A stretch of DNA of 37,439 nucleotides from Bilabrum cf. latius (GCA_965178125.1 OZ237772.1:558001-595439); one strand, 5' to 3'; shown: positions 1 through 34,187, counted from the stretch's first letter. Numbers and translations are program-made. The notes: generated by a model not told the origin, from the letters alone.

Positions 1-2322
1 TGGCGAACGTCACGATCCACTCGTGCAGCAGATTGGAGATCAAAAAGGTCAGCATCAGCGCGTCAAACCGCGAGAGACCGTCTCCGCCGTGGCGGGCGGC
101 TGTAGCACCTGCCTTGGGCTAGACTGCTGCCGTGTCCGCCTCCTCCTCCGCCCCGCCTGCGCCCGTGCCACTGCCTCTTACCTGCCGCTTGCCTGCTCTT
201 TTACCTTTACCTTTGCCCTTTGCCCCCCCACCAGCGCCTCCCTCTTGTGCTATCTCAGCCAGGCCGCCAATGTCTGCCCCCTCGTTCGCTTCGACTTCTC
301 CGCTCGCCCCTGTGATGGCCCGCCGCCCAGCCTCCGATGTGAACCGCATCAGGTCGAAGTAAATGTACGTGCGAATGTGCTGGCCCACCACCACATTCCA
401 GAGGCGATAGAACTGTCCAAAAGATGCGGCATTCCACCAGTCCTGCGAACAAGGAAGGACGGGAGCAGAGGCAGGCACGCACACATGCAAGTTGCCGCAA
501 TGCGGTCCATCCATGTCACACACAAACGGGCGGAAGGCCCCAATAACACAGCCCGCAGGCAGACACTCACACTCGCAAACTGTCCTCGATCTCCGAACCG
601 CAGCAGCTCGGCCCACATGTTGAGCCACGAGTGCAGCACTCCGTAGAACATGAGCACCAGCAGTAGGGAAGCGGGCAGCATAGAGTGGAAGACGCTGAGC
701 ACGAACGCCTGCAGATCTCCCGGATACAAAGCAGTGTGCTTGAACTGCGGAGCCACCGCCACCACGAAGAGAAGGTACACGAACCCGACCACCAGTAGGA
801 AATTGAGGCCGTGCTTTCCCGCCTCGACCCATCTCACGTCGGGTGCCAAGCCGGGGTATCTGTCTCTGTACACGAGCGTGGGCGCGAAGGAGAAATACAT
901 GTACCTGCCAATTTCTCGTTGCACGTCCCCCACATCGATGCGGGGCACCAGCACGTGCTCTTCCGTGACCCCTTTCTTCCGGGCCCAGCCAGGGATGTAC
1001 CGGGCCAGCGCGCTGTCGCCGTACAGCCCGTACAGCATCTTCTCCCTGAAGTACGCGTGCGCCTTCATCAGAAAACGGGCCATCTCGGCCTGCAAAATCA
1101 CCGCGCTAGGGGGTGGCAGCGGGCTGTCTGCCACGGCCAGGAAGTACAAGCAGACAGCGGTGGGCACCAACACCTGCAGGCCCTGCCCGATGCAGTAGAG
1201 CGGGAGCCACACATGCCAGCTCCAACTGAACCTCCGGACGCCCTGCACCAGCAGGATAGGGAAGAAAGATAGCACAAACTGCGCTACCCAGCAAGGCGCC
1301 ACGACTCCGACGTGTCCGAAGCCCCACACGAGCAGCCCAATGTCCGGTGTCAGGTCCGGCTCCACTGGCACCGCGGTCAGCTGAGAGGCCACCTGGCTCC
1401 ACTGCAGCGCAGGCGCAAGCTGTGCCCCGCCCTCATTCTCCGTGGCATTCAGCCCGTGGGTGGATGCATGCGCCGCCCAAGCCCTCCCCGAGCCCCCGCA
1501 GGCCCAGCCCTGGTCCGATTCCCCCGGCCTCTCCGCCTGCCGCTGCAGCTGAAAGGCCGCCTGCACCACCATGTTGATGCCCAGCCACGCCATGCCTGCC
1601 ACCGCCATGCTGTAGATCGTGCGGTAGTCCCGCCGCCCCTCCAGCATGGTGGTCAGCAGCGAGGCCCGGGGCCGGAAGGCAGGCTGCGACCATGCTCTCC
1701 TCAGCCGGGCCTGTCTGGCCGCTTCCTGCTGGGTCTCGGACAGCTGACTGCCCGAGGCCCGGGGCTCTCTCCTCTCCATGCCCGCATCGTCCTCGCCCAT
1801 GCCCTCCGCGCGGTCCAGCTGCGTCTCTAGCGAGGCTCCCAGGTCGCGCACTGCCTCCGCATGCCTGGCCAGGTCTCCGTGCAGCGATGTGCGCAGGGCC
1901 AGGAGCTCGTCTCGGAGAGAGTCCACGGCGCGCAGGTGAGCATGCACGCCCTAGCGATCCAGAAGGACTCGGGAATCTTCTGCCGTGGTCGCGGAGTTTG
2001 AAAGAAGCCAATCCTTATCGGCACTACTGCGAGCACTGTCGCCACTGGCACTGGCAGCAACAGTATGCGACCGGTTGGGAATCCGCCTGCGACTCCTTGC
2101 CGCGCTGAGCGTCTCGACACCGTCGGCCCCAGTCTAGCTGCCAAATCGTTTTCTTTTGGGGGGCGTTAGTAATGAATCTTCTTCGGTACCGCTGCCAGTG
2201 GCGCTGTCGTCTAGAGTTGCAAATGCGGGGCTACCTTGCCCCCGGACCTACTGCAGCTCTTTCCGCAGCATTTTCACCTCCGATAGTAAACGAGCATCCG
2301 TCGACGTATTTGACGCGCTCAT
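1..2322 (-). CDS. SOAT: Sterol O-acyltransferase (ACAT/SOAT-type MBOAT), 3'-partial; exons 2322-571 and 442-<1; in-frame TAGs read as sense
   Basis: ACAT-type motifs MKAHAYFRE, FAPTLVYRDRYP, LHSWLNMWAELLRFGDR and DWWN...FYRLWNVVV. After TAG 121-119 the frame continues to FLISNLLHEW (catalytic MBOAT His). The frame is open upstream through TAGs at 1953, 2136 and 2250 to ATG 2322; the true start is uncertain. Confidence 0.9.
443..570 (-). other. 128-nt spliceosomal GT-AG intron (phase 0) in the SOAT gene
   Basis: Minus strand GTGAGT donor at 570 and a pyrimidine-rich TCCTTCCTTGTTCGCAG acceptor ending at 443. Removal joins RFGDRGQFAS to DWWN, restoring the MBOAT RFGDR..DWWN motif across two frames. 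Confidence 0.85.
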
Positions 2323-2804
2323 AATGGTCTGCTACTTTCCTCTGAACTGCGAGAAAGGGGCTGCCAGAACAATCATGAACGCGGCATTCCCGCTGAAACA
2401 CAGAATCAACCTGGTGTGGGAACCATGCCCTGCGTGGCACACATTTTCTACGTGAGAATGATGCAAACGAAGGCGGCACAAGCGCAGCACCGCATGAGTT
2501 GGTAGGCATTCAAGAAAACGCACTATCAGCATGCCAACAGCCGAGGCTCGCCACACATCTTCGACAAGACTAAATAGGATAAGCTGCACGAGTCCTCACC
2601 ACTTATAAGCCCACGGCGTAGACAGGGCTAGACCAGGAATTATAGAACCCGCAGCAGCGGCTGCAGCCGCCGCGGCTGCTTGTGCACGCACATCATGATG
2701 ATAACCGGAAAAATGCCTCGCCGTCCGGGATCCTTCCTGGCCGCAGCACACACATATTCACCGCAGGGAAGACTGACAACAACACTATGTATTGTTGCAA
2801 AATC

Positions 2805-4220
2805 ATGACATCGCGGTGGTCTGTTCGCGATGTCATCCCGATCCTGGCATGCATGGCCGCAGCCATGGCACAAGCGACCGAAGGTGCGATGGCTGTACCA
2901 CAACAATCCCGCGACGCACCTTCGATAGCATGGGACAGCAATGCCCCAAAGCTAGCACATGATAGTATCGATGGGATCGGTCTGGACTTTGATGATCGGT
3001 CTGCGCTTCCGATGGTGGCATACGGGTTTATTGCCAAGTCTGATGGCAGTCCGACGACTATCGAGTTCCTCAGGCTCGAAGATTCGGGTGATTCTTGGAG
3101 CTCCCTGGGCCACCATACTCCCCAGTTTGCCCAGCCGTATGATCATTTTGCGTTTCGTGAACGCAACGAGGTGCTGTATCTCGGCTTGGTGATCGACGAG
3201 GCATTCAATTTGAGCTCCGTCCTGCGAGGTGACAATGGCTTCGATGGATTCACTGGCTGCTACGCATTCGGAGGCTGGGTGTACGACTACGCTATCACGC
3301 CAAGTGGTGACATGCGAGCCATTATGTCGCCCGACAACCGCACGCTACAGACGGACACGTACAGGTCTGCTGGGTGGAACTCGTACCCCGCTGGGAACAC
3401 CTGGACACCGCCGCACCAGGTGGCCACTGCCCCTGGTGCTCGATCCATCCAGGAGGTGAGGGTGGCAGCTGGACTGAGAGATACGCTCTGGACTGTTCGA
3501 ACGGAGCGACCCTCGAACATCAGCAAGCCTTAGTCCTCTCAGGCTGTGGCCGTGGTCTCCCGCACCACGCTCTCTGACACTGCCAGCTGGAAGGACTACA
3601 TACAGGTGCAGGGGGCGCTGGGGGCAGCGGTGGACTGGGCCTCTACCGGAACTTCTTCTCCTTCCCCCTCTGGTATCGTGTGCACCGCTGCTCTGATCCC
3701 AACCACAGCCCGTCTTGATGCCCCTGCTGCTGCCTCCACCGTAGCTGCCCAGCTGCAGGTGCACTGCGCCCAGACGACCCCGGGGCCTGCAGGGCAGCCG
3801 GACGGAGCCGGCACCTGGCAGGCCATGGGCACTGCGCTGAGTGCCATCGCAGTGGACACTTTGGGGGCCGGGGCCAGGCCAGACGTGGCTTTGGTGCAGC
3901 GGCCGGGGGGCTCCCTGCTGGCAGTGGCGGGGGCGCTGGACAGGTCCTCGGGGCTGGTCAAGACGGCTGTCTGCGAGGTGGACGCTGGAGCCTCCGAAGG
4001 TGCCCTCCAGTGTCAGGGTGGGTGGCAGCAGGTTTCAGTTCCCCGGTCTGCGCTTGCCTCCAGCGGCCGGGCCACCGCCTTCCGTCTGAAGTCACCTGAC
4101 GAGGCAGGGGAGGGGGTGTCCCCGCAAGGCCCTGCCTGCTTGCTGCTGGCTTCCACCAACAGCAGCGATACTGTGCACGGGATGGACCAGCTGGCTCTGC
4201 TGCAGTTGCGCACCCCATGA
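2805..4220 (+). CDS. Unknown secreted protein (~471 aa), one internal TAG at 3531-3533
   Basis: ORFs 2682-3533 and 3546-4220 are in the same frame and separated only by TAG. Signal-peptide-like MTSRWSVRDVIPILACMAAAMAQA; ends in TGA. No family recognised. Confidence 0.7.
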
Positions 4221-5135: not shown

Positions 5136-8100
5136 ATGGCAGAGGAACCTGGGGACTATCCCATGAGCATGATCGTCAACCACCACGCCTACAAATACCA
5201 ACCATTAGCTGGTACACGGCTCAAGACAAGCCCGTGGCTGCTACTGGCCGTGGTTTGCCTCCAAGCGTGCGCCGCAAGCTCGTCGCCTATCGGGTCGGTC
5301 ACCAAGCTTGCAGTGGGGCAGGGGGGGCTGCCGTCCAACTTTCCGCAACAGGGCGATTTGTTCGGGTTTTCGGCGAACTTGATCGGAGACATGGACGAAG
5401 ATGGCGTGAACGACCTCGGGGTGCACGTGCACTAGGGAGACGGCACCAGATCCAACACCGGCACTTTCGCCATCCTGTATATGTCCTCTGACGGTACCGT
5501 GGACCGATTCCAGGAGTATTGGCTGGGGACTGGTGGAAACATCGGGGGTTCGGCCGATGGACAAATTGGTGCCCAGTTTGGGGCCGACCCCACTCGCGTG
5601 GACCAGCCCCTCGGGCAGGACGGCAGCACGCCGCGAGTATTTCTGGGGGAGCCCAGGTGGATCACTTCCGGATTCGGACAAGTGGGGCGCGTGTTTGTGC
5701 TCCGTATTGATTAGAACGGTACTGTTTCGAGCGTCACCATCTTGCAAGACGGGCTGAATGGAGTGCCTTCGAACTACCTCATGGGCCAGTCTCGATTCGG
5801 TGTGACGATTGCTGCGATCGGTGACATCGACTCTGACGGCATGCAGGACGTGGCCGTCGGTGCATTGTTGTCAAACGATGGCGTCTCGCAAGGTGGTGCC
5901 ATGCATATCCTCAGGATGAACGGCGACGACACGGTCAAGGCGATTCGCAAACTGTCGCAGGCCACTGGGTTCGGGCTCGACGTGCTGAGCCCCCCTGTGA
6001 CGCAGCTAGGGAACGGTGCCGCTGCCATGGCGCCGCGCCTTTCTGGTAACCCCGTTGACCTTATGATCGGAGCAAGAGGGAGCGATGCCGCGGTGTACGT
6101 CCGCCTGGACTCTACCGGCGGGGTGATCCAGGGGTCCGTGAGGGTGCTCCGGGACGGCCAGGAGGGCATTCCGACTGGAACCATCCAAGCCAACTCGCTC
6201 TTCGGTTATAATATCGTCAACATTGGAGACGTGAACAGCGACGGGACGGAGGATCTCGCGATTTCTGCCACAACCGATGACACTGGCGGCACGAACACGG
6301 GCAAGAGCGTCATCCTCTTGACCGGCTGCGCGGATCCTGGCGCCAACGCAACGTTTGTGGAGTCTGTGATCGCTTTGTCCACATCGACCCCTGGACTTGG
6401 TAACGTAGGTCTAACGGGGGCTTCATTTGGTGTGTCGAGCGCTGGAGCTATGGATAGCAACGGGTCTACTCCGCTCATCTTCGGTGCCCATGAGGACGGG
6501 CAAGGAGGTCCGCGAACTGGGTCTGTGCTGGTCGCGGAGCTGATTGTGCCAGCTGCCCAACAACCCGCATGCCCTACTCCGGCTCCAAGTGCCAGCCCGA
6601 GCCCTTCACCCAGTAGTAGTGCCAGCCCGAGCGCATCGCCTGCCCCGGTAGGTGCCGTGGTCTCTATGGTCAAAATCGCCAACGGCCAATCCGGCCTGCC
6701 ATCGACCTTCCCTCGTGCCAATGGCCGCTTCGGCCGCCGTGCTGTCTCTCTCGGAGATATGAACGGTGACTCCGTCGAGGATATGGGCGTGCTTCTCTCC
6801 CAAGCCAGTGGTGGTGGCAATGCCGCGGGCTCTTTCGCCGTTCTCATGATGAAGACCGACAGGACCGTGGACAGCTACATCGAGTACCACTTGGGCACCG
6901 GTGGAAATATCAACGCTCCTGGTATCGCACCAGTGACCGGCTCTGCCTTCGGGTCAGGCCTGTCTCGCTTCGACCAGCCCAACGGCCAGGATGGAGGCAT
7001 CCCAAGGATCATCGCAGGCCAGCCATTCCTCGACGTTGGCGGAAACTCCAAGATCGGAAGAGCCTTCATCCTGCGCGTGGACACCAATGGCGCGGTCACT
7101 AACACGGTGGTGCTGCAGGATGGACTCAACGGTATTCCCACAGGTACTCTGCCCACCACCGGCAGGTATGGCCAGGGTGCCACCGGTAATCTTGGGGACC
7201 TGGACGCTGACGGTCTCAACGACATCGCCATCAGCTCTCCCTTCTCGAATGATGGTATCAGTGACGGCGGCTCGATCTTTGTGCACTTCATGAACGGAGA
7301 CGACACCGTTGCCTCCACTACAAAGATCTCTCAGACCACTGGGCTGAGCTCCATCCAGCCCAGGGTGAAGCTGCTAGGGTATTCGATCGCCGTCATCCCG
7401 GCCCGCTCCCCCGATCACGCGGTCGACCTGGTGGTGGGCACGCGGCTCGGCGACTTTCTTGCCTACTTCGGCTTGACTAAGAACGGTACTGTGGCCCCTG
7501 GCTCCGCGAGGGTGATCAGGGACGGGCAGGAAGGAGTGCCATCTGGGACCATCCAGAGCGGTTCCGCGTTTGGACTTGGTGTGGCAAATGTGGGCGACAT
7601 GAACGGCGATGGCATAACTGACATTGCTGTGGGTGCCCCTTTAGATGATCAGGGCACAGGCAAGAGCTTCATCTTTTATCTGGCATGCACCACGTCGACC
7701 ACCGTGGATCTCGTGCAAGGCGTATCGGTGCTGGACATCAACACGCCAGGCATCAGCGGTGTGCTGAGTGCCAACACAAATTGGGCAGCCACCGGTGCGT
7801 TCAATGATATCGACGGGGACGGTCGCGTAGAGCTCATCTTCGGCGCACAAAATGATGCAACCGGGGGGAGCAGGGCAGGCGCTGCATACGTTGCGTCCAT
7901 GGGTGGCCCGCTGCCTGGCCCAACACCATCGGCGTGTCCATCGAGCTCACCATCAACAAGCCCAACTTCGTCGCCCACTGCGAGCGTCAGCAGCAGCCCG
8001 TCCACATCGCCCACTGCGAGCGTCAGCAGCAGCCCGTCCACGTCGCCCACTGCGAGCGTCAGCAGCAGCCCGTCCACGTCGCCCACTGCGAGCGTCAGCA

Positions 8101-10556
8101 GCAGCCCGTCCACCTCGCCCACTGCGAGCGTCAGCAGCAGCCCATCCACGTCGCCCACTGCGAGCGTCAGCAGCAGCCCGTCCACGTCGCCCACTGCGAG
8201 CGTCAGCAGCAGCCCGTCCACCTCGCCCACTGCGAGCGTCAGCAGCAGCCCGTCCACCTCGCCCACTGCGAGCGTCAGCAGCAGCCCGTCCACCTCGCCC
8301 ACTGCGAGCGTCAGCAGCAGCAGCAGCCCGTCCACCTCGCCCACTGCGAGCGTCAGCAGCAGCCCGTCCACCTCGCCCACTGCGAGCGTCAGCAGCAGCC
8401 CGTCCACCTCGCCCACTGCGAGCGTCAGCAGCAGCCCGTCCACGTCGCCCACTGCGAGCGTCAGCAGCAGCCCGTCCACCTCGCCCACTGCGAGCGTCAG
8501 CAGCAGCCCATCCACGTCGCCCACTGCGAGCGTCAGCAGCAGCCCGTCCACGTCGCCCACTGCGAGCGTCAGCAGCAGCCCGTCCACCTCGCCCACTGCG
8601 AGCGTCAGCAGCAGCCCGTCCACCTCGCCCACTGCGAGCGTCAGCAGCAGCCCGTCCACCTCGCCCACTGCGAGCGTCAGCAGCAGCAGCAGCCCGTCCA
8701 CCTCGCCCACTGCGAGCGTCAGCAGCAGCCCGTCCACCTCGCCCACTGCGAGCGTCAGCAGCAGCCCGTCCACCTCGCCCACTGCGAGCGTCAGCAGCAG
8801 CCCGTCCACCTCGCCCACTGCGAGCAGCAGCAGCAGCCCGTCCACCTCGCCCACTGCGAGCGTCAGCAGCAGCCCGTCCACGTCGCCCACTGCGAGCGTC
8901 AGCAGCAGCCCATCCACCTCGCCCACTGCGAGCGTCAGCAGCAGCCCGTCCACGTCGCCCACTGCGAGCGTCAGCAGCAGCCCGTCCACCTCGCCCACTG
9001 CGAGCGTCAGCAGCAGCCCGTCCACCTCGCCCACTGCGAGCGTCAGCAGCAGCCCGTCCACCTCGCCCACTGCGAGCGTCAGCAGCAGCCCGTCCACCTC
9101 GCCCACTGCGAGCGTCAGCAGCAGCAGCAGCCCGTCCACGTCGCCCACTGCGAGCAGCAGCAGCAGCCCGTCCACCTCGCCCACTGCGAGCGTCAGCAGC
9201 AGCCCGTCCACCTCGCCCACTGCGAGCGTCAGCAGCAGCCCGTCCACCTCGCCCACTGCGAGCGTCAGCAGCAGCCCGTCCACCTCGCCCACTGCGAGCG
9301 TCAGCAGCAGCCCGTCCACGTCGCCCACTGCGAGCGTCAGCAGCAGCAGCAGCCCGTCCACGTCGCCCACTGCGAGCAGCAGCAGCAGCCCGTCCACGTC
9401 GCCCACTGCGAGCGTCAGCAGCAGCCCATCCACCTCGCCCACTGCGAGCGTCAGCAGCAGCCCGTCCACCTCGCCCACTGCGAGCGTCAGCAGCAGCCCG
9501 TCCACCTCGCCCACTGCGAGCGTCAGCAGCAGCCCGTCCACCTCGCCTACTGCGAGCGTCAGCAGCAGCCCGTCCACGTCGCCCACTGCGAGCGTCAGCA
9601 GCAGCCCTTCCACGTCATCTATGCCGCTGACGATGTGCTCCGATGGCGTCAAGAATGGTGAAGAGTCGGACATCGACTGCGGTGATCCGTCCGATGACTA
9701 GTGTCCTTTATGCTCAGAGGGCCTCCGCTGCCTCGATACGGCTAACTGCGAGGACGGACTTGTATGTTCCGGCAGTACGCATCGCTGTGTGGAAAGGGTA
9801 CACCGCCCGGGGCTGTGGCTATGGTTTTTCCGGCTCCGAATCCGCTGCCACTACTATGCGTGGTACGTCCGTCGCCTGTTGTCCCTCCTGAGGCATGGGA
9901 TCCAGAGCGCCACACGCGCTCAAGATGTCTCTTTCTAGAGGGTACAGCGCCGCCGGAGCTTCTGGAGGCATCGCTTGCTTCAGTCCTCTGGCAAGGATGA
10001 GCTGGATCTGGTCGATGAGTCAATGGACGCGCACAATACCTCCATGGTGGAGATCGATTTCTCTGTTCATTTCTCCGAGGATGCAGACGAGGACAGCATG
10101 CGAGCACTGGTCGAGGCGTTCATCGGGGCTGGAAATGCGAGCGATGCGGCGCCCCACGACGGTGACCTCTCAAGACTGCTGGCCTCACAAGACGAGAGTG
10201 CAAGTCTCCTGGAATCCCTTCGCGCCGATGCACCCATAGATGCATTGAACGATATTACGGTTGAAGCTGACGATCTTGAGGTGCAGACAGAAGTGCTGCA
10301 CACCACCGAATACGTTGAGGAGGCGGCCCCAGTCAACCGAGGCAGCGAGAGCGATGGATCTCAGGCAGAGGGCCTCCTGAGCCGTTCCTCAGCGGTCATC
10401 GTGGCGGCTACCTGTGGCGCTGCGGTGGTGATGGCTGCAGTGGGGTACGCATTGGCCGTGTGGCGCGACGCCAAGGCCGCAAGTCGCAGAGTTGGGAATA
10501 TTTAGCGGCCTGTTTCTGGCCCTGAACGGAACCAGGTTCTCGAGCCTGGGGTATGA
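5136..10556 (+). CDS. Large type-I membrane protein (~1800 aa): two FG-GAP/integrin-alpha-like propeller modules, Ser/Thr/Pro stalk, Cys-rich module, TM helix
   Basis: Four track ORFs share one frame, split by TAG at 5433, 5712, 9699, 9936 and 10503; ends TGA 10554-10556. Repeated FG..GDxxxDGxxDxAVGA motifs. CSDGVKNGEESDIDCG..*CPLCSEGLRCLDTANCEDGLVC Cys module spans a TAG. Hydrophobic AVIVAATCGAAVVMAAVGYALAVW. Start could be 5136 or 5163. Confidence 0.85.
7971..9615 (+). repeat. Coding 36-bp tandem repeat (SPTASVSSSPST), about 45 copies, mucin-like stalk
   Basis: Unit CCCACTGCGAGCGTCAGCAGCAGCCCGTCCAC(C/G)TCG; occasional 42-bp units with an extra AGCAGC; all variants keep the frame. Confidence 0.97.
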
Positions 10557-11030
10557 TGCCCCTGTGCGCCCGTTCTAATTGGGGCCAGTCGTTGGCCTTG
10601 GCTCACCCGATAGTCCGAGTTACCTGCATATTGCTGCCCCCAAGAGGCTGTCTGGCCGATGCACCCGAAGCTGCTTCAGCTGGACGCCAGACTGGCACGG
10701 GGTATTTGGCTGAATTCGGAAAGTCGGGTTTGAGACTATTATGTTTGTTTGCAGTGTGTGTGAGTCGGGCCTATGACAGGCCGCGAGCCGGCTTCTGCTG
10801 GCTTGCTGGCCTTCGGTTCTGGATTGACGGGTACTTCGGGTCTTCGTTGGCGGGGTTGGGCATGAGGCTTGAGCTGTGGTAGCTCTATGCTGCTGCTACT
10901 CGGCCGCATGTGCCCGATGGCACCTGCGTGCAGCCAGTTGGACCCTTTTGCCGCATTCCAGATCCGGTTTGCTTTTGCTTTGGCTTTTGAGATTCTTACA
11001 CGTGGTCTGCTTCGGTTCAATGCTTGTATT

Positions 11031-12836
11031 ATCCGTGACCCCACAGATCTTGTCGTGTAGTTGACTCGGAATATTTAAAAAAGGAAGCACTCAGGAACGT
11101 TCATTAACACGGCATAATGCAACTGAATTATATCTCCGTGTGAAGTCGTTAGTTTCTAGTTTTTAGATCAAAAAGAAGATTTTTGATATCTTGTATACTT
11201 CAAGAGATATGTGCGATCAAAAACCGTGGATTTGGGCTTCAGCTGGGCTCAATATCGTGACGAGTGTCCCCACACATCTTGACAGGTAGTTTGTATCTCC
11301 AAAATCATTGTACTCTAAGCAAACCCATTGATGTCGTATCAGTACATGCAGAACATGACTATTAAAACTATCGATACAGCCAAACAATTTTGGTGCTTAT
11401 TCAAATTTAGGCACGCTGTAGCTCGTTGAACCAGGCCTCTTTGGACTGCCACTAAATTTGCTTTCTTTCATCTCTGTATTCTACAGTATCGGCTTGCAGC
11501 GCAAACTGTAGGCAACATTTCCAATATGAGCGCTTTCAAAAACAAATGCGTAGCATGGAATTCCGATAGTTGTTTCCGATGGGCCCGTTTTGTCGACTAA
11601 ACATGCGTTTGTGCAGATCAAGTCAGAACCTGGCAACACCAATGCGAGATGAGCGCAGCATACTACACGCAGGATCGTATCAATGCAATCTTTATATGGA
11701 AGTAGACGATATAGTCCAAAGCTTAACTTGCACATGTTGCAGAGCCCGTCTGTAACGGCAGGTCTCTACACCAGTATGCGGATCTTGCATCACGGGCGAA
11801 TCCACCGATCCTCGCTCTTTAATGAGGCATACAGCCATCTAAGCCAGAATTTATGCATTAAATATTAGTGAGGATTCTATTCATGCGATGATATGCGTAT
11901 TGATTGAATATTGGCGAGCATGGCCCACGCAGTCCTGCCGTCGGTCAATCGGTAGAGGTGCGCGAAGCATGTATCCTGTGCCCAAGTCGTTTGCTGTTCT
12001 GCAATTTCCTGTACCTGAAATCATGCCATACATTGGTATTCTATCCAACCGGCTAGGTCGGAGTTATCTACCACCCTGAATAATGGCCTGGGACCTGGTT
12101 CAGTGACACGAGGTGCTAGGTCAGCCAGCGACACGAACAACTACCGTTTATGCTCCTTCAATAATGCATCAACAGTAGATTCACTCATACCAATGGTTCA
12201 ATGAAGTCCTAATTTTACCAAGAGTGCGTTTTCAGTCTCTAGCTTTCTCATGGACGCCCAAGTCGGGCGACTCTGTCTCATGTGTACCAGCCAGCGAATC
12301 TGGCCACGGGCAACGACCTCAGTAATGTATGATTATGGAGCGGTAAAACTCCAAGAATGATGAGGCCTATAATAGTATAAACCAAAACAACGCAAAAATC
12401 GAATCAGTTTGGTCTGCATGCATCATGCAAAGTGCACGTAGTTATGATGCCCAATCGATCCAACCTCCGGCTTCAACTCAGTGCACAAAAGTGACGCAAA
12501 GCATAAAATAGAGCCAATCACACATGTACATGCTATATGTGGCTTAGTTGGGAGAGTCGTAGTTTACGTTTCATACAAATCGGCCCGCATCTAAGTATCA
12601 AAAGTAAAGATGATCCAACACGTACGGTACACAGCCCTAGTACAGTGCATGAAGCCTACTTCGAGGTTTACTTCTCACCATACTACGATTACGATATATA
12701 TAAATGCTTGAAGCAAAGACTTCCCAAAGAATACTCATTAAATCTCGCGTAAAATAGGAGTTTGTGCCAAACACGCCAAGATGTGTGGGCGTGCTCGTCA
12801 CACTTACTACACGACAAGATCTGTGGGGTCACGGAT
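11031..12836. mobile_element. Putative non-autonomous TIR DNA element (~1.8 kb)
   Basis: Perfect 31-bp inverted repeat ATCCGTGACCCCACAGATCTTGTCGTGTAGT at 11031-11061 and 12806-12836. A second imperfect inverted pair lies at ~11258-11282 and ~12778-12802. The interior is AT-richer than the flanks with no convincing ORF. Confidence 0.6.
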
Positions 12837-12875
12837 TCTGCTACAATTGACACAGATGCCACCCAGGCAACTTGT

Positions 12876-14640: not shown

Positions 14641-14668
14641 CATGCCGATGGGGGGTTGGCAATTAAAC

Positions 14669-19007: not shown

Positions 19008-19454
19008 GGGGGGGGGGTAGGGTTAGGGTTAGGGTTAGGGTTAGGGTTAGGGTTAGGGTTAGGGTTAGGGTTAGGGTTAGGGTTAGGGTTAGGGTTAGGG
19101 TTAGGGTTAGGGTTAGGGTTAGGGTTAGGGTTAGGGTTAGGGTTAGGGTTAGGGTTAGGGTTAGGGTTAGGGTTAGGGTTAGGGTTAGGGTTAGGGTTAG
19201 GGTTAGGGTTAGGGTTAGGGTTAGGGTTAGGGTTAGGGTTAGGGTTAGGGTTAGGGTTAGGGTTAGGGTTAGGGTTAGGGTTAGGGTTAGGGTTAGGGTT
19301 AGGGTTAGGGTTAGGGTTAGGGTTAGGGTTAGGGTTAGGGTTAGGGTTAGGGTTAGGGTTAGGGTTAGGGTTAGGGTTAGGGTTAGGGTTAGGGTTAGGG
19401 TTAGGGTTAGGGTTAGGGTTAGGGTTAGGGTTAGGGTTAGGGTTAGGGTTAGGG
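19006..19454 (+). repeat. Internal telomeric tract 2, irregular proximal start (TA-G10-TAGGG)
   Basis: TTAGGG hexamers. Confidence 0.99.
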
Positions 19455-20762: not shown

Positions 20763-21404
20763 TTAGGGTTAGGGTTAGGGTAGGGTTAGGGTTAGGGTTA
20801 GGGTTAGGGTTAGGGTTAGGGTTAGGGTTAGGGTTAGGGTTAGGGTTAGGGTTAGGGTTAGGGTTAGGGTTAGGGTTAGGGTTAGGGTTAGGGTTAGGGT
20901 TAGGGTTAGGGTTAGGGTTAGGGTTAGGGTTAGGGTTAGGGTTAGGGTTAGGGTTAGGGTTAGGGTTAGGGTTAGGGTTAGGGTTAGGGTTAGGGTTAGG
21001 GTTAGGGTTAGGGTTAGGGTTAGGGTTAGGGTTAGGGTTAGGGTTAGGGTTAGGGTTAGGGTTAGGGTTAGGGTTAGGGTTAGGGTTAGGGTTAGGGTTA
21101 GGGTTAGGGTTAGGGTTAGGGTTAGGGTTAGGGTTAGGGTTAGGGTTAGGGTTAGGGTTAGGGTTAGGGTTAGGGTTAGGGGTTAGGGTTAGGGTTAGGG
21201 TTAGGGTTAGGGTTAGGGTTAGGGTTAGGGTTAGGGTTAGGGTTAGGGTTAGGGTTAGGGTTAGGGTTAGGGTTAGGGTTAGGGTTAGGGTTAGGGTTAG
21301 GGTTAGGGTTAGGGTTAGGGTTAGGGTTAGGGTTAGGGTTAGGGTTAGGGTTAGGGTTAGGGTTAGGGTTAGGGTTAGGGTTAGGGTTAGGGTTAGGGTT
21401 AGGG
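20763..21404 (+). repeat. Internal telomeric tract 3
   Basis: TTAGGG hexamers with one TAGGG and one TTAGGGG variant. Confidence 0.99.
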
Positions 21405-21937
21405 TATCTAATATAAAGTCAGGGACAGGGTCGGGGAAAAAATATTTTCATCTTCATTTTTTTGTCGAAAATGTGCCCTCTGCGATCTCAGCAACTAGAA
21501 TAGGTATGAAGATGATTCAAACTGTTTTGGGACGGCCTAGGGCCATATCATGGGGCAAATGTTCCCCAGGTTCCGTTTTGACCGAGCGGCGACGATACTG
21601 GCTGATGAAGATTTACATGCCGAAAATGTGCCCTCTGCGATCTCAGCAACTAGAATAGGTATGAAGATGATTCAAACTGTTTTGGGACGGCCTAGGGCCA
21701 TATCATGGGGCAAATGTTCCCCAGGTTCCGTTTTGACCGCGCGGCGACGATACTGGCTGATGAAGATTTACATGCCGAAAATGTGCCCTCTGCGATCTCA
21801 GCAACTAGAATAGCCGTCCCCGTGAAATCTCCCAGAAATTTCTGGATTCCGGGTCCACATTTGCGACCCAACGACACTCAGGGTCAAATATATCTAAAAC
21901 AAATGAGTGGAATATAACTATAACCACTAAATAGATT
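21405..21937 (-). mobile_element. Telomere-inserted short element B2 (copy of B1 with ~2.2 satellite units)
   Basis: Same two ends as B1, five fewer 155-bp units. Confidence 0.75.
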
Positions 21938-23315
21938 TTAGGGTTAGGGTTAGGGTAGGGTTAGGGTTAGGGTTAGGGTTAGGGTTAGGGTTAGGGTTAG
22001 GGTTAGGGTTAGGGTTAGGGTTAGGGTTAGGGTTAGGGTTAGGGTTAGGGTTAGGGTTAGGGTTAGGGTTAGGGTTAGGGTTAGGGTTAGGGTTAGGGTT
22101 AGGGTTAGGGTTAGGGTTAGGGTTAGGGTTAGGGTTAGGGTTAGGGTTAGGGTTAGGGTTAGGGTTAGGGTTAGGGTTAGGGTTAGGGTTAGGGTTAGGG
22201 TTAGGGTTAGGGTTAGGGTTAGGGTTAGGGTTAGGATTAGGGTTAGGGTTAGGGTTAGGTTAGGGTTAGGGTTAGGGTTAGGGTTAGGGTTAGGGTTAGG
22301 GTTAGGGTTAGGGTTAGGGTTAGGGTTAGGGTTAGGGTTAGGGTTAGGGTTAGGGTTAGGGTTAGGGTTAGGGTTAGGGTTAGGGTTAGGGTTAGGGTTA
22401 GGGTTAGGGTTAGGGTTAGGGTTAGGGTTAGGGTTAGGGTTAGGGTTAGGGTTAGGGTTAGGGTTAGGGTTAGGGTTAGGGTTAGGGTTAGGGTTAGGGT
22501 TAGGGTTAGGGTTAGGGTTAGGGTTAGGGTTAGGGTTAGGGTTAGGGTTAGGGTTAGGGTTAGGGTTAGGGTTAGGGTTAGGGTTAGGGTTAGGGTTAGG
22601 GTTAGGGTTAGGGTTAGGGTTAGGGTTAGGGTTAGGGTTAGGGTTAGGGTTAGGGTTAGGGTTAGGGTTAGGGTTAGGGTTAGGGTTAGGGTTAGGGTTA
22701 GGGTTAGGGTTAGGGTTAGGGTTAGGGTTAGGGTTAGGGTTAGGGTTAGGGTTAGGGTTAGGGTTAGGGTTAGGGTTAGGGTTAGGGTTAGGGTTAGGGT
22801 TAGGGTTAGGGTTAGGGTTAGGGTTAGGGTTAGGGTTAGGGTTAGGGTTAGGGTTAGGGTTAGGGTTAGGGTTAGGGTTAGGGTTAGGGTTAGGGTTAGG
22901 GTTAGGGTTAGGGTTAGGGTTAGGGTTAGGGTTAGGGTTAGGGTTAGGGTTAGGGTTAGGGTTAGGGTTAGGGTTAGGGTTAGGGTTAGGGTTAGGGTTA
23001 GGGTTAGGGTTAGGGTTAGGGTTAGGGTTAGGGTTAGGGTTAGGGTTAGGGTTAGGGTTAGGGTTAGGGTTAGGGTTAGGGTTAGGGTTAGGGTTAGGGT
23101 TAGGGTTAGGGTTAGGGTTAGGGTTAGGGTTAGGGTTAGGGTTAGGGTTAGGGTTAGGGTTAGGGTTAGGGTTAGGGTTAGGGTTAGGGTTAGGGTTAGG
23201 GTTAGGGTTAGGGTTAGGGTTAGGGTTAGGGTTAGGGTTAGGGTTAGGGTTAGGGTTAGGGTTAGGGTTAGGGTTAGGGTTAGGGTTAGGGTTAGGGTTA
23301 GGGTTAGGGTTAGGG
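21938..23315 (+). repeat. Internal telomeric tract 4 (~1.38 kb)
   Basis: TTAGGG hexamers with TAGGG, TTAGGA and TTAGG variants. Confidence 0.99.
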
Positions 23316-23376
23316 TATCTATTATAAAGTCAGGGACAGGGTCGGGGAAAAATATTTTCATCTTCACTTTTTGACA

Positions 23377-25183
23377 AAATCCTGCGGGATACGATCTCGG
23401 CAACCACAGGAGATATGAAGACCGTTCAAATTGCGTTGGGACGGCCTAGGGCCACATCATTGGCCAAATGTTCCTCAGGTTCCGCTTTTGACGCGCGGCG
23501 CCAATATTGGGCCTTGAAGATTTTCATGCTGAAATCCTGCGGGATACGATCTCGGCAACCACAGGAGATATGAAGACCGTTCAAATTGCGTTGGGACGGC
23601 CTAGGGCCACAACATTGGCCAAATGTTCCTCAGGTTCCGCTTTTGACGCGCGGCGCCAATATTGGGCCTTGAAGATTTTCATGCTGAAATCCTGCGGGAT
23701 ACGATCTCGGCAACCACAGGAGATATGAAGACCGTTAAAATTGCGTTGGGACGGCCTAGGGCCACAACATTGGCCAAATGTTCCTCAGGTTCCGCTTTTG
23801 ACGCGCGGCGCCAATATTGGGCCTTGAAGATTTTCATGCTGAAATCCTGCGGGATACGATCTCGGCAACCACAGGAGATATGAAGACCGTTAAAATTGCA
23901 TTGGGACGGCCTAGAGCCACATCATTGGCCAAATGTTCCTCAGGTTCCGCTTTTGACGCGCGGCGCCAATATTGGGCCTTGAAGATTTTCATGCTGAAAT
24001 CCTGCGGGATACGATCTCGGCAACCACAGGAGATATGAAGACCGTTCAAATTGCGTTGGGACGGCCTAGGGCCACATCATTGGCCAAATGTTCCTCAGGT
24101 TCCGCTTTTGACGCGCGGCGCCAATATTGGGCCTTGAAGATTTTCATGCTGAAATCCTGCGGGATACGATCTCGGCAACCACAGGAGATATGAAGACCGT
24201 TCAAATTGCGTTGGGACGGCCTAGAGCCACATCATTGGCCAAATGTTCCTCAGGTTCCGCTTTTGACGCGCGGCGCCAATATTGGGCCTTGAAGATTTTC
24301 ATGCTGAAATCCTGCGGGATACGATCTCGGCAACCACAGGAGATATGAAGACCGTTCAAATTGCGTTGGGACGGCCTAGGGCCACATCATTGGCCAAATG
24401 TTCCTCAGGTTCCGCTTTTGACGCGCGGCGCCAATATTGGGCCTTGAAGATTTTCATGCTGAAATCCTGCGGGATACGATCTCGGCAACCACAGGAGATA
24501 TGAAGACCGTTCAAATTGCGTTGGGACGGCCTAGAGCCACATCATTGGCCAAATGTTCCTCAGGTTCCGCTTTTGACGCGCGGCGCCAATATTGGGCCTT
24601 GAAGATTTTCATGCTGAAATCCTGCGGGATACGATCTCGGCAACCACAGGAGATATGAAGACCGTTCAAATTGCGTTGGGACGGCCTAGGGCCACAACAT
24701 TGGCCAAATGTTCCTCAGGTTCCGCTTTTGACGCGCAGCGCCAATATTGGGCCTTGAAGATTTTCATGCTGAAATCCTGCGGGATACGATCTCGGCAACC
24801 ACAGGAGATATGAAGACCGTTCAAATTGCGTTGGGACGGCCTAGGGCCACATCATTGGCCAAATGTTCCTCAGGTTCCGCTTTTGACGCGCGGCGCCAAT
24901 ATTGGGCCTTGAAGATTTTCATGCTGAAATCCTGCGGGATACGATCTCGGCAACCACAGGAGATATGAAGACCGTTAAAATTGCATTGGGACGGCCTAGG
25001 GCCACATCATTGGCCAAATGTTCCTCAGGTTCCGCTTTTGACGCACGGCGCCAATATTGGGCCTTGAAGATTTTCATGCTGAAATCCTGCGGGATACGAT
25101 CTCGGCAACCACAGGAGATATGAAGACCGTTCAAATTGCGTTGGGACGGCCTAGGGCCACAACATTGGCCAAATGTTCCTCAG
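23377..25183. repeat. 155-bp satellite variant C, ~11.7 copies
   Basis: AAATCCTGCGGGATACGATCTCGGCAACC recurs with a 155-bp period; colinear with variant B. Confidence 0.97.
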
Positions 25184-25220
25184 ATTCATTGTACTTCATT
25201 CAGTGCAAGTATGGCGTATT

Positions 25221-27502
25221 GAAACCTACTCGGGGGAGGTTTCAAAACCTACCCAGGGCGGTTTCAAAACCTACCCAGGGCGGTTTCAAAACCTACCCAG
25301 GGCGGTTTCAAAACCTACCCAGGGCGGTTTCAAAACCTACCCAGGGCGGTTTCAAAACCTACCCAGGGCGGTTTCAAAACCTACCCAGGGCGGTTTCAAA
25401 ACCTACCCAGGGCGGTTTCAAAACCTACCCAGGGCGGTTTCAAAACCTACCCAGGGCGGTTTCAAAACCTACCCAGGGCGGTTTCAAAACCTACCCAGGG
25501 CGGTTTCAAAACCTACCCAGGGCGGTTTCAAAACCTACCCAGGGCGGTTTCAAAACCTACCCAGGGCGGTTTCAAAACCTACCCAGGGCGGTTTCAAAAC
25601 CTACCCAGGGCGGTTTCAAAACCTACCCAGGGCGGTTTCAAAACCTACCCAGGGCGGTTTCAAAACCTACCCAGGGCGGTTTCAAAACCTACCCAGGGCG
25701 GTTTCAAAACCTACCCAGGGCGGTTTCAAAACCTACCCAGGGCGGTTTCAAAACCTACCCAGGGCGGTTTCAAAACCTACCCAGGGCGGTTTCAAAACCT
25801 ACCCAGGGCGGTTTCAAAACCTACCCAGGGCGGTTTCAAAACCTACCCAGGGCGGTTTCAAAACCTACCCAGGGCGGTTTCAAAACCTACCCAGGGCGGT
25901 TTCAAAACCTACCCAGGGCGGTTTCAAAACCTACCCAGGGCGGTTTCAAAACCTACCCAGGGCGGTTTCAAAACCTACCCAGGGCGGTTTCAAAACCTAC
26001 CCAGGGCGGTTTCAAAACCTACCCAGGGCGGTTTCAAAACCTACCCAGGGCGGTTTCAAAACCTACCCAGGGCGGTTTCAAAACCTACCCAGGGCGGTTT
26101 CAAAACCTACCCAGGGCGGTTTCGAAACCTACCCAGGGCGGTTTCAAAACCTACCCAGGGCGGTTTCAAAACCTACCCAGGGCGGTTTCAAAACCTACCC
26201 AGGGCGGTTTCAAAACCTACCCAGGGCGGTTTCAAAACCTACCCAGGGCGGTTTCAAAACCTACCCAGGGCGGTTTCAAAACCTACCCAGGGCGGTTTCA
26301 AAACCTACCCAGGGCGGTTTCAAAACCTACCCAGGGCGGTTTCAAAACCTACCCAGGGCGGTTTCAAAACCTACCCAGGGCGGTTTCAAAACCTACCCAG
26401 GGCGGTTTCAAAACCTACCCAGGGCGGTTTCAAAACCTACCCAGGGCGGTTTCAAAACCTACCCAGGGCGGTTTCAAAACCTACCCAGGGCGGTTTCAAA
26501 ACCTACCCAGGGCGGTTTCAAAACCTACCCAGGGCGGTTTCAAAACCTACCCAGGGCGGTTTCAAAACCTACCCAGGGAGGTTTCAAAACCTACCCAGGG
26601 AGGTTTCAAAACCTACCCAGGGCGGTTTCAAAACCTACCCAGGGCGGTTTCAAAACCTACCCAGGGCGGTTTCAAAACCTACCCAGGGCGGTTTCAAAAC
26701 CTACCCAGGGCGGTTTCAAAACCTACCCAGGGCGGTTTCAAAACCTACCCAGGGCGGTTTCAAAACCTACCCAGGGCGGTTTCAAAACCTACCCAGGGCG
26801 GTTTCAAAACCTACCCAGGGCGGTTTCAAAACCTACCCAGGGCGGTTTCAAAACCTACCCAGGGCGGTTTCAAAACCTACCCAGGGAGGTTTCAAAACCT
26901 ACCCAGGGCGGTTTCAAAACCTACCCAGGGCGGTTTCAAAACCTACCCAGGGCGGTTTCAAAACCTACCCAGGGCGGTTTCAAAACCTACCCAGGGAGGT
27001 TTCAAAACCTACCCAGGGAGGTTTCAAAACCTACCCAGGGAGGTTTCAAAACCTACCCAGGGAGGTTTCAAAACCTACCCAGGGAGGTTTCAAAACCTAC
27101 CCAGGGAGGTTTCAAAACCTACCCAGGGCGGTTTCAAAACCTACCCAGGGCGGTTTCAAAACCTACCCAGGGCGGTTTCAAAACCTACCCAGGGCGGTTT
27201 CAAAACCTACCCAGGGCGGTTTCAAAACCTACCCAGGGCGGTTTCAAAACCTACCCAGGGCGGTTTCAAAACCTACCCAGGGCGGTTTCAAAACCTACCC
27301 AGGGAGGTTTCAAAACCTACCCAGGGCGGTTTCAAAACCTACCCAGGGAGGTTTCAAAACCTACCCAGGGAGGTTTCAAAACCTACCCAGGGAGGTTTCA
27401 AAACCTACCCAGGGAGGTTTCAAAACCTACCCAGGGAGGTTTCAAAACCTACCCAGGGAGGTTTCAAAACCTACCCAGGGAGGTTTGAAACCTACCCTAG
27501 GT
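25221..27502. repeat. 22-bp minisatellite GGTTTCAAAACCTACCCAGGG(C/A), about 100 copies
   Basis: 22-bp period with no spacers. Confidence 0.98.
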
Positions 27503-27763: not shown

Positions 27764-29299
27764 TCACTCGTTATCGGAGGAGGGTTCCGCATCGACAGCT
27801 GCCAGGAGCGCCTCAACAGCGTCCACGTCTGCTGCATTGAGATCTCCTTCCGCCGTCTTCTCGAGGGCCGTCATCAGGCCTACGAGCGTGCCCAACCCGT
27901 CGTCCCTCTCTTGAATTGTTTCCTGCACGTCCTCGAGCATGTCGTCGAGAGTTCGGCTGACGCCCAGCGCTATGTCATCGCAGGCAGCGAGGATGCGGTC
28001 CACCAGGTGCCGCTGCTAGTCGGTGAAGCCGTTGTCATCCACTCCACCGTCGTTCTCAGAGTCGTCTTGCTGGTTCTGGGCCTCGTTCTCTTCTTCCTCA
28101 TCCAGCTCGTCCTGATCCTCCTCGTCCTGCTGCACGAGTTCTATCGGAGCCTCATCCTCGTCCTCTTCATCGGCTGCGTCTGCGTGGTATCGATCACCGA
28201 TCTCCTCTTCATCCTCCTCAGAGTCCTGTCGAGGCAGTGATGCTGCTGCTCCACTCCTTGCGCCTCTTGCTCCCCTCTTGTCCTGGCCAACGGCGTGGCG
28301 AGCTCCTCCGCCATAGCCCGGTTGGAGAATGGGCGATCGCTTGTGCTGTATCTTAGCCCGAGGTGCCGCTTCAGTCGCCTTCCTGCGCTCCGGTTCTGCC
28401 GGTTGCGCACCTTCATCCCTCGGCTTTCCCTTTGACTTTCCCTTTGACTTGCCCGCGGCCTTGGTCCTGGCCTTCAATTTGGCCTTTGCCTTTTCCCTGG
28501 CCTTGGCCTCCGCTCTCCGCTTGGGGCCGAGTAGGTCGTTGTTCAGTCGCTCGGTCTATGAGTCGCTGGACTCTGAGCCGTCTGAATCTTGCTCGCCTCG
28601 TTTCCTCTGGGCCTTGTAGGCACTGTGGTCCGCGACACCGTCGTCGGGGTCGTCCTCGTCGTCGTCGACCATGGCACTCCGTTTGTCCTTGCCAGCACGG
28701 GGTGCTCCACTCGGCGAAGCAGCAGCGGCTCCCGCAGAAGCATCTTGGTCCCCTGCGGCTGCCGCGGCAGAGTCCTTGACTGCCATGTCAAACACGTCTT
28801 GGAACACAGCCTGCATGCCTCCACGCGCACGCACAGAGGCTTTCCCAGCTCCGTAGTCGCAGACGAACTTGATCGCGGTCTTGTAGTTCCTCCGCAAGCC
28901 ATCCATGCCTGCCTTGAACCAAGGATTGTGGCTGGTAGAGTAGCCGCTGTCGCGCAGGCCCATGAGCATCTAATTCATCTTGCGGTAGCCTGGCGAGCTG
29001 GTGCCGCTAGTTGATGCAGCCGGATATAGGCGGTGACTCAGCACCTTCAGCATGTCAGGCGGCAGATCGGACTCATTCAGGTCCAGCATGGCATCCACGC
29101 AGGCTTTGATGCCCTCTTTCTTGGTCCCCTAGTAGTGCTCGGTAGACCCGCAGAGTAACCCGCAATCTTGGTGGAGGCCCACGAGGGAGATCAGCAGGAC
29201 TTGCTTGGCAGCAGACGTGCTGACGCCTGAAGCCAGGGCAGCCACGACGGGGCGGGAGGCCTTGGTGTGCTTGACGCTGTAGCTCTTTGCGGCGGCCAT
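27764..29299 (-). CDS. Element ORF1, 511 aa, unknown: globular N-terminus, Lys/Ala-rich and Asp/Glu-rich middle, helical/coiled-coil-like C-terminus
   Basis: Four same-frame track ORFs joined by TAGs at 29131, 28972, 28558 and 28018. ATG 29299 (MAAAKSYSVKHTKA), TGA 27766-27764. The C-terminal part is conserved in copies D1 and D2. Confidence 0.8.
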
Positions 29300-29606: not shown

Positions 29607-30180
29607 AACCCACGCGAAACCGAAAAAAAAATACAGATTCGCATCAAAAGTGCACGCAACTTGCACTTGTCACGCCGAAACCTACCCGTTCACCCAACGA
29701 GCAGCGCGAAATCAGAAACACTCATATTGCGCTCCTTGTATTCAATTGCAGAGGCGCATACTTGGCATATAGCTACTATAGCATATTGTGCATACAACCC
29801 TAAAGCAAACGTGAGTCAAATCGATGGGGTATGCGTGGGGATTGCCTTGCGCAATGCGCTTGCTGCAACGTGGTTCAGACGTTTGGCTCAATTGCGCGAC
29901 GGCAAGCACTCGTTGGAACTAATCTCGCGCATATTATCAAATAATATAACATACTGCAAACAATTGCGCGGCGATATATAGGCTGCGCGCCCAATGCTCA
30001 CTTTGCTTGCGGCAGGTGTGCTGCGACAACATTTGTGGTGGCCCGGATCAGGTTGCGGAACCTGATGCGCGGCACCGCCGTGACGAGTGCGCCACCAGGG
30101 AACAACGCATCGTACCATCATACTAATCACATCCCAAGTATATTATATATCCTTGTGGCATCTCTGTCCGCAGTCTGGTC

Positions 30181-32436
30181 ATGGCGCAGTCCACGTACGA
30201 CGCCACCAAGCATGTGAAGGCTCTCGACTACCTTCGGGCCTTCCTGGACCGCCGCGCGAAGGGCTACGCTCAGAACCCGCATCGCGTGCGCATCGGAGTC
30301 CCAGGGCCACTTCAACCAGGAGGTGCCGCCCTGCCTGGCCCGCCGGCCGGCGAGGCGCAGGCCCAGATCCCGGCCCAGGTGGGGCCAGCGCCAGGCGGCC
30401 ATGCCGCCGGGGGGGGCGATGCGGCAGGCCTGCCGGCCCCCGCCCCAGCCATCGGCGAGCATGCTCCGGAGCCCCAGCACCAGCAGCAAGAGGGCGCCCA
30501 CCAACCACCACCTGGTGCAGCTCTTGCTGCTGGCCAGCAGGCGATGGCCGCCGCCCCGCCCCAGCACCCCGCTGGTCCGGGTGCCAACCTGCCGGTCCCA
30601 GGAGGCTTGCAGCCCGAGCCGCCAGCTGGCGATGCCGACGCCTTCCTCCCGATCCCGGAGCCCCAGCAGGAGCCTGCAGGTGGGCCAGCCGGCGTCGGTC
30701 CGGCCCCTCCAGCAGCCGAGCAGCAGCCAGCTGCCCAGGCTGCCCAGCACCAACTCGTCCCTGGGCCCGTGCCTCTCGCCGAGGTGCCCGTCCTGGCCGG
30801 GGTCGGCGCAGGGGAGGACGCGATGGAGGACGACGAGCCCCCAGAAGCGGTCCAGGCCATCTTCCTCGGGCGCCAAGCCGCCCACGCGGCCACCCAGGCA
30901 GCTCGGCAGGCCATGGTCTGGGATGCTCAGGGCCAGCAGCCGCTCTTCGGGGCAGAGGGAGGAGCGCCCGAGCTGCCCATCCCCGGAGTCGTGTTCGCTG
31001 CCGGTGCAGAGGCAGCCGGCGCCCAAGGCGGTGGCGCAGGCCCAGACGCCGGAGGGGAGGTCGGTGCGCCACCCGTGCAGGCGTGGAACCTGGTCGTCGG
31101 CGACCCGGGGGGAGCGCAGGGAGAGGAGGCCCTGGCCGTCAACCTCCCGCCCGAGTACCGGTTCGGCATGCACGAGGCGACGGACGACCTCGCGCAGCAC
31201 CCCATGCTGGCCTACCACATATGGGAGGTGGACGACGAGGCGGTGCAGGCCCTGCAGGGCCTGCTGACCTGCGTTGGCAGGCAGGAGCTGCCTCCCGAGG
31301 TGTGGAGGGCGCTCGCACCTCCAGTGATGGAGACGGTGACCATGCAAGGCATGCGGCGCTGGTGGGCGTACCAGAGGCGCGCCGTTGTCGTCGTGGACAG
31401 CCTCCTGCATGCCGAGACTGATGCTGCCGGCGTGGAGCAGCGCGCGCAGAGGCGCGGCCGCTTTCTCGTGCAGCTCGTTGGCTGGACTGACATCACCAAG
31501 ATGCTGGAGAGCGAAGACCTGAACGAGGAAGGGGCTGCCTTCATTCGGAGCAAGCTGGCTTCGGTGGCGGTCAGCTTCTGGCCGTCTCCGATGCTGGCGG
31601 AGCCCGGGCTGCACAGCCACAAGCTCTCTCCGCTCCGCACGGAGTGGGATCACTACATCGAGTACAACCGCGTGGACGAGACGGTCTTTGACGCGGTCGG
31701 GCTCTCCGAGCAGCCTCCAGCGTTCGTGTACGAGGACGAGGACGAGGACGAGATGGAGGAGGGGCCGGCGGCGCAGCCGGCTGGGGCGGAGGAGCATGCA
31801 GAGGGCGACGAAGATGCCGGGTATGAGGCTGGAGAAGGCGAGTGGGGTGGGGAAGGCCAGTGGGACTCGGACGGAGACCAAGGCGGCGACGAGGAAGCGG
31901 ATGGTGGAGATCCTGCCGCGGGGGCTTTCGGAGCTGCGGATGCCGAGCTGGAAGGCGAGCCTGAAGAGGAGCAGGAGGCCGCCCCGGATGTGCTGCGGAA
32001 CCCACCAGACGGCATGGCGGCCCCCGTGGCGGTCCGCTCTGAGCTCTCCGATGTCGACGCCATGGAGGTGGTCGGGATCCTAGCCGGCGCCGGAGCCTCC
32101 CAGGAGGTGCAGACCAGCCCGTTCATGCTGGTGCTTGGGGGGCCGGTGTCACGGCTCCTGCTGGACGAGCCGCTGGACCAAGCCTACGGCCTCATCGACG
32201 TGCTGATTGGAGCCGACTCGGCGACGCAGGATGGGGTCCTCTGCGGGCGCAGGGGTCTGCAGAGGGACGGGGGGCAGATCAGGGTGCAGTCGGCCACGCA
32301 GCAGCACCAGCGCACCGAGGTGGAGACGAGCGGCTCATCCAGGCCCCGGCTCGGCTACAGCATCGTCTTCAACCGGCACATCCCCACGTAGGAGCGGGAC
32401 AATCCCGGCACGCCGAGGACTCACGGCGCGTACTAC
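30181..32436 (+). CDS. Element ORF2, >750 aa, unknown, 3'-truncated by the telomere tract
   Basis: 736-codon GC3-rich ORF. Its apparent stop is TAG 32389-32391; read-through (ERDNPGTPRTHGAYY) runs into TTAGGG with no TAA/TGA. Confidence 0.75.
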
Positions 32437-32713: not shown

Positions 32714-32775
32714 TATCTAATATAAAGTCAGGGACAGGGTCGGGGAAAAAATATTTTCATCTTCACTTTTTGTCA

Positions 32776-34156: not shown

Positions 34157-34187
<31 letters not shown>

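Follow-up and report, generated by a model that had tools for sequence, protein, structure and literature searches.

The window analysed here is a whole stretch of 37,439 nucleotides from Bilabrum cf. latius (GCA_965178125.1 OZ237772.1:558001-595439), which forms the terminal 37 kb of a chromosome or contig from a eukaryote; its GC (guanine plus cytosine) content is 0.48–0.70 in 2-kb segments, and its terminus is a TTAGGG array. Stop-to-stop open reading frames (ORFs) were listed with both readings of TAG, and six long ORFs emerge from fragments once TAG is read through. These six genes, which bear on the meaning of UAG in the nuclear code of this organism, are the following:

1–2322, minus strand: MBOAT / sterol O-acyltransferase-like gene (exon 1, 571–2322; exon 2, 1–442, leaving the window at its edge); TAGs by codon tally at 2248–2250, 2134–2136, 1951–1953 and 119–121
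2787–4220, plus strand: secreted protein ORF with a signal-peptide-like N-terminus; TAG at 3531–3533; TGA end at 4218–4220
5136–10556, plus strand: FG-GAP repeat protein (Pfam FG-GAP, 6e-18); TAGs at 5433–5435, 5712–5714, 9699–9701, 9936–9938 and 10503–10505; TGA end at 10554–10556
12876–13892, minus strand: GH16 beta-glucanase gene (Pfam GH16 and SKN1/KRE6); TAGs at 13614–13616, 13389–13391, 13377–13379, 13188–13190, 13152–13154, 13065–13067 and 12909–12911; TAA end at 12876–12878
27764–29299, minus strand: ORF1; TAGs at 29129–29131, 28970–28972, 28556–28558 and 28016–28018; TGA end at 27764–27766
30181–32391, plus strand: ORF2 (GC 71%); TAG at 32389–32391, followed by 46 nt and then a TTAGGG array at 32437

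In-frame TAG, TAA and TGA in the six genes

Codons were counted in coding-sequence models of the six ORFs (4604 codons; coding GC 0.54–0.71, and GC at third codon positions, GC3, 0.60–0.80), with caveats attached to the ORF2 TAG and to the upstream region of the MBOAT gene, whose TAGs at codons 25 and 63 are valid only given Met-1 at 2322 as the start. The models contain 22 in-frame TAGs (MBOAT gene 4, secreted protein 1, FG-GAP gene 5, GH16 gene 7, ORF1 4 and ORF2 1) and no internal TAA, no internal TGA and no frameshift or indel. The TAG rate is 0.48% in frame versus 0.37% off-frame, where the same genes hold 34 TAG, 19 TAA and 147 TGA in 9208 codons; at that off-frame rate about 83 TAA plus TGA codons are expected in frame and none is observed (P(0) ~1e-36). 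The non-coding stretches contain 10.2 TAG, 10.0 TAA and 16.0 TGA per 1000 trinucleotides, and TAG is therefore not unusual in this DNA as such. The base 3' of TAG is unbiased (G6, A6, C6, T3). TAG at a background rate in conserved genes that hold no TAA or TGA argues for UAG being read as sense, and we consider it very probable, judging from the sequence, that the nuclear code of this organism reads UAG as an amino acid and that UAA and UGA stay terminators. The preliminary description of this DNA had reported the same 22 TAGs with the same division among the six ORFs, and the ORF lists, translations and codon count reproduce them; its statements that the genes lack internal TAA, TGA and frameshifts and that the gene ends are TGA at 4220, 10556, 18444 (a gene fragment, below) and 27764 and TAA at 12876 hold as given.

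Internal TAA is absent from all 21 internal TAR (TAA or TAG) codons, although NAA makes up 25% of the CAR + GAR + AAR codons (P = 0.002); for GH16 only, the corresponding values are 0/7 and 48% (P = 0.011). A sense TAA would predict about 7 TAA beside 21 TAG, and the off-frame TAA rate predicts 9.5 in-frame TAA (P(0) = 7.5e-5). In-frame TAA as common as TAG was looked for, and none is present in the six ORFs, in agreement with the earlier claim that TAA and TGA are not sense codons. The stops that end full ORFs are TGA three times and TAA once, with further TGA ends in the 18444 fragment (one) and in paralogous fragments of ORF1 (two), which is a small sample; the single TAA gene end, that of GH16, is weak evidence for a TAA stop, and it has a TAG 10 codons upstream, where the ORFs of both close relatives (P0007 and P0226, below) end.

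Homology supports coding sequence on both sides of 11 TAGs: six in GH16 (sites 165, 240, 244, 307, 319 and 348), FG-GAP 197 and 290, MBOAT 124 and 692, and ORF1-57. For GH16, 85 homologues were found, and an alignment of 22 of them with the window protein is ungapped through all six sites (for example, in the block RA-X-LPA-X-NSTGAWPAHW). Introns are therefore excluded at those sites and were rejected as the source of the GH16 TAGs. All 30 of 30 invariant family columns are kept, including E278, D280 and E283 of the EIDIME motif; this protein has only two named relatives, from the choanoflagellates Diaphanoeca grandis and Bicosta minor, with identities of about 40%. The MBOAT gene is 52% identical to P0092 over 253 amino acids, its named matches are animal sterol O-acyltransferases (SOAT) at about 30–36% identity, and an Atlas search with the MBOAT stretch gave clusters labelled 'Eukaryota' only. 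Exon 2 passes the Pfam MBOAT threshold by itself, and the fourth TAG, in this exon, follows the FYRLWN segment and precedes the LLHEW His motif. That conserved motifs lie past TAGs had been noted before, and it is so for both genes, the MBOAT His following the fourth TAG and GH16 EIDIME following 3 TAGs; a 128-nt intron had also been mentioned and was likewise found, in the MBOAT gene at 443–570 (GTGAGT...CGCAG, a canonical GT..AG intron, with the junction FGDRGQFAS / DWWN).

The FG-GAP protein, whose homologues are at most 33% identical, consists of two propeller-like modules, a Ser/Thr/Pro repeat (7971–9613), a Cys-rich segment and a transmembrane helix, and an internal repeat alignment places TAGs 197 and 290 within the first of the two internally homologous modules. 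Its 7971–9613 segment is a 36-nt coding repeat of 45 copies that forms a mucin-like (SSSPSTSPTASV)n stalk between the modules and the Cys-rich, transmembrane end. ORF1 has a single match, P0225, among 1.84 billion representatives (89% identical over 76 amino acids), and the 19 residues that follow TAG-57 are 80–90% identical to it. In a Pfam search no family matched ORF1, ORF2 or the secreted protein. Among the wider relatives, the sequences closest to the window genes are 43–52% identical, and a JGI metagenome scan with P0226 gave 27 loci, the best at 41% identity, and no close relative.

The preliminary description had also considered that the TAGs might be absent from the reads. Contigs from four public runs were mapped onto 9650–14400, and this DNA occurs in four studies under four organism labels. 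The contigs of X1, possibly the source sample, cover all seven GH16 TAGs with 0 differences, the X5 contigs (study P2) have 10/10 TAGs in 9650–14400 unchanged (the seven of GH16 and the three C-terminal ones of FG-GAP, the latter in contig 9650–11020; 0 differences), and the X9 contigs (study P4) include two of these FG-GAP TAGs, likewise unchanged. TAGs that are unchanged in contigs of separate studies are therefore not assembly errors. None of the runs is recorded as RNA; an RNA nature of X5 and X9 is a guess, and X5 is marked 'probably DNA'. The X5 and X9 contigs cover gene bodies and skip 11060–12814, but DNA contigs also break at the repeat there; since the gap coincides with that repeat, it allows no inference on expression, splicing or editing.

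Two paralogous 3' fragments of ORF1 lie nearer the end of the window:

33803–34087, minus strand: ORF1 copy C, 89% amino acid identity; TAG 34055–34057 and TGA end kept; cut by the array at 34139
35891–36547, minus strand: ORF1 copy B, 83% amino acid identity, intact frame; TAG 36143–36145 and TGA end kept; 5' side cut by the array at 36650

One of the ORF1 TAGs recurs in all three diverged paralogous copies, which have intact frames and a common TGA end.

Residue at the TAG sites and alternative readings

P0007 and P0226 (Logan-derived, in one 90% cluster) share 92% and 90% identity with the window GH16 protein, and at GH16 sites 165, 240, 244, 307, 319 and 348 they have K, K, Q, E, E and Q, respectively (P0007 begins after site 165). 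P0225 has K at ORF1-57, the internal repeat partners of FG-GAP TAGs 197 and 290 are Q and T, and Q stands opposite MBOAT-124 in P0092, where the alignment is weak, so the partner residue at the ten comparable sites in close relatives or paralogues is Q at 4, K at 3, E at 2 and T at 1. Pairwise likelihood over these ten sites (BLOSUM62, BLOSUM90 and PAM30) places Q first, with K 2.4–6.8 and E 3.0–10.2 nats behind, and most of the closest homologues have Q at GH16 sites 244 and 400. A GH16 profile made from 84 of the 85 matches (P0007 excluded) gives summed log-odds of 4.56 nats for K, 3.13 for Q, 2.86 for R and 1.23 for E. Leu and Ser are poor fits (−3.97 and −0.61 nats in this profile, and Ser at least 9 nats below Q in the pairwise comparison). 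The FG-GAP profile (40 of 75 matches used) is uninformative at both of its TAG sites. These comparisons have a bias, in that TAG sites shared by a relative go unseen because the gene caller cuts the relative's ORF there, and what can be seen is precisely the set of sites whose first position has changed to A, C or G. On balance we favour glutamine as the residue that UAG would encode, with a confidence somewhat above even; lysine is a doubtful candidate and glutamate a distinctly poorer one. The 'probably Gln' of the preliminary description thus stands as the best pairwise fit, with Q at 4/10 sites, and is not established, given the K, E and T at the other sites and a profile that prefers K. 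The decoder would be a tRNA whose CUA anticodon pairs with UAG and not with UAA, eRF1 would have lost its UAG recognition or have it weakened, and the residue inserted would most likely be Gln.

Several observations weigh against a sense UAG, or against Gln as its meaning. No single amino acid fits the TAG sites, as the partner residues above illustrate, and the GH16 profile places K above Q because site 240 is a K/R family column (K 0.43, R 0.24, Q 0.05). The six genes come from one subtelomeric window, in the whole of which there are 0 tRNA genes by ARAGORN and 0 Rfam matches at gathering thresholds, hence neither a tRNA gene nor an 18S or other rRNA. For ORF1 against copy B, the ratio of nonsynonymous to synonymous substitution rates (dN/dS) is about 0.58 both before and after the TAG that they share, a value that indicates weak constraint and is not decisive. 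Finally, a TAG lies near three putative gene ends (GH16, FG-GAP and ORF2).

If UAG is sense, it might instead specify Lys or Glu, decoded by a tRNA derived from tRNA-Lys or tRNA-Glu and carrying the anticodon CUA, since the close relatives have K at 3/7 and E at 2/7 of the covered TAG sites and the conserved K/R column and the profile speak for Lys; we think this unlikely, though the most serious of the alternatives, as the pairwise likelihoods of both residues fall below that of Q and the GH16 columns 244 and 400 are mostly Q in the closest homologues. A dual meaning of UAG, as a sense codon within genes and a stop towards the 3' end (of the Condylostoma or Blastocrithidia type, with UAG only), is suggested by the TAGs at gene ends. 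In GH16 the site-400 TAG is followed by ten codons and then TAA, the P0007 and P0226 ORFs both end one residue before that site, and family C-termini lie 0–10 residues past that column; the last FG-GAP TAG precedes TGA by 17 codons, and the last codon of ORF2 is TAG. From these positions a terminator role for TAG has to be reckoned with. However, the family Q conserved at GH16 site 400 fits a sense reading, ORF2 adjoins a telomere array as three truncated gene fragments do (its TAG is either a stop or the final sense TAG of a gene that the array truncates), and two of 21 TAGs near ends are only mildly unexpected (~0.05, a rough estimate of our own); we regard a dual code as rather improbable.

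Reassignment of UAA together with UAG (ordinary code 6), with TAA merely rare in GC-rich genes, would agree with the GC3 of 0.60–0.80 and with only one gene ending in TAA. But NAA codons are common among the NAR codons of these genes and no TAA is found among the 21 TAR codons, and an ordinary code 6 is therefore unlikely; with the off-frame comparison added, we give it very little weight. Still less probable is that the ORFs are dead subtelomeric pseudogenes under the standard code, or that a directed mutation created the TAGs, even though the window is a patchwork of segments that end in TTAGGG arrays, with several truncated fragments, and the relatives carry residues of the AAG/CAG/GAG type (K/Q/E) at window TAG sites. 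Single substitutions from the codons of these genes would yield TAG in 56%, TAA in 19–21% and TGA in 23–25% of changes to a stop, so under random nonsense decay 21/21 being TAG has P ~5e-6, and random pseudogene decay is rejected. Moreover, there are no frameshifts, all the GH16 invariant residues are kept downstream of TAGs, and we know of no process that would convert each of A, C and G to T ahead of AG.

Telomere arrays and repeats in the window

Six TTAGGG arrays, always with the G-strand on the plus strand, lie at 14670–14918, 19014–19455, 20763–23316, 32437–32714, 34139–34802 and 36650–37439, and truncated genes adjoin arrays: ORF1 copies B and C, perhaps ORF2, and the following fragment.

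18444–19013, minus strand: 3' part of another gene; TGA end at 18444–18446; 5' side cut by the TTAGGG array at 19014

Together the arrays and truncated genes look like the result of repeated breakage, telomere healing and subtelomeric duplication. The internal arrays are followed by 155-bp satellites, which belong to two or more sequence families (19516–20638, 21466–21813, 23377–25187, 32776–33535 and 34864–35623). A 331-bp satellite occupies 15113–18376 (9.9 copies, 98% matches). The 25222–27497 segment is a tandem array of a 22-bp unit (103.5 copies, 99% matches); this array keeps three plus-strand frames open for about 780–850 codons, and those ORFs are therefore repeat artefacts. Between the FG-GAP and GH16 genes, 11032–12835 is 1.8 kb of non-coding DNA in which ORFs have no Pfam match. 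In X1 its word depth is 190–223, against 43.8 in the GH16 contig next to it, and contig breaks fall on its borders; the stretch probably represents a dispersed repeat with about 4–5 copies.

Known UAG-only codes and the meaning of this one

A change of meaning nearly always affects UAA and UAG jointly. Most ciliate macronuclear genomes are AT-rich and have telomeres of the C4A2/C4A4 type, whereas the window is GC-rich and has TTAGGG. Few reassignments of UAG only are described (PMC11687900, PMC5304391): to Leu in the rhizarian exLh, to Gln in Iotanema spirale, to Ser in Scotinosphaera, and others in Protocruzia tuzeti and some phyllopharyngean ciliates, with a tRNA(CUA) and eRF1 changes as the predicted mechanism. 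Iotanema spirale (Fornicata; formally NCBI table 15) resembles the window in that UAG only is reassigned and UAA is kept as a stop, with a tRNA(CUA) predicted (PMC5304391); Iotanema also carries an eRF1 change, T32G. The window differs from it in the high coding GC, the TTAGGG arrays, the sterol O-acyltransferase-like gene and a residue for which Gln is not established. The exLh and Scotinosphaera codes are also UAG-only and outside ciliates (PMC5304391 and PMC11687900), but their residues, Leu and Ser, fit the window poorly in the GH16 profile. In ciliates with UAG uncoupled from UAA the targets include Gln, Glu, Leu and Lys (PMC11687900, PMC10553269), and Oligohymenophorea sp. PL0344 reads UAA as Lys and UAG as Glu (PMC10553269).

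Amoeboaphelidium protococcarum (Aphelida), in which UAG and UAA are both Gln (PMC6299283), is an opisthokont, as are the choanoflagellate relatives of the window GH16 and the animal relatives of its SOAT-like gene. Its genome has a GC content of 40.5%, and that of A. occidentale 39.9% (PMC10608142, Table 1). Amoeboaphelidium was considered as the host and excluded by this GC of ~40%, against 0.48–0.70 in the window, and by the lack of in-frame TAA here, both UAR codons being reassigned there. Nuclearia thermophila, whose GC is 44%, was another candidate that was set aside. In the literature covered, with supplements and subscription journals outside its scope, there is no described GC-rich TTAGGG organism with UAG-only reassignment.

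One further proposal, which we hold only tentatively and think more likely wrong than right by a wide measure, is that UAG means Lys, or is ambiguously Gln, Lys or Glu through near-cognate tRNAs with no dedicated suppressor, and is perhaps also a 3' terminator, in a GC-rich TTAGGG lineage whose genes have opisthokont relatives. If true, both this code variant and its lineage would be absent from the published list of UAG-only reassignments.

Returning to the simpler reading of UAG as sense with UAA and UGA as stops, the six GH16 sites that are TAG in the window are K, Q or E codons in P0007 and P0226; both of these proteins apparently have in common with the window the stop at site 400, and P0007 probably that at 165 as well. 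This pattern suggests a fast turnover between TAG and NAG among close relatives. Such exchange of TAG with K, Q and E codons among sequences about 90% identical would suggest a young reassignment that is still shifting. In practice, gene callers set to the standard code truncate the proteins of this organism wherever a TAG occurs, and P0007 and P0226 are truncated in this way. A further UAG-only case, apparently outside the listed groups, would be one more observation on the ways in which eRF1 and a tRNA(CUA) can separate the two codons.

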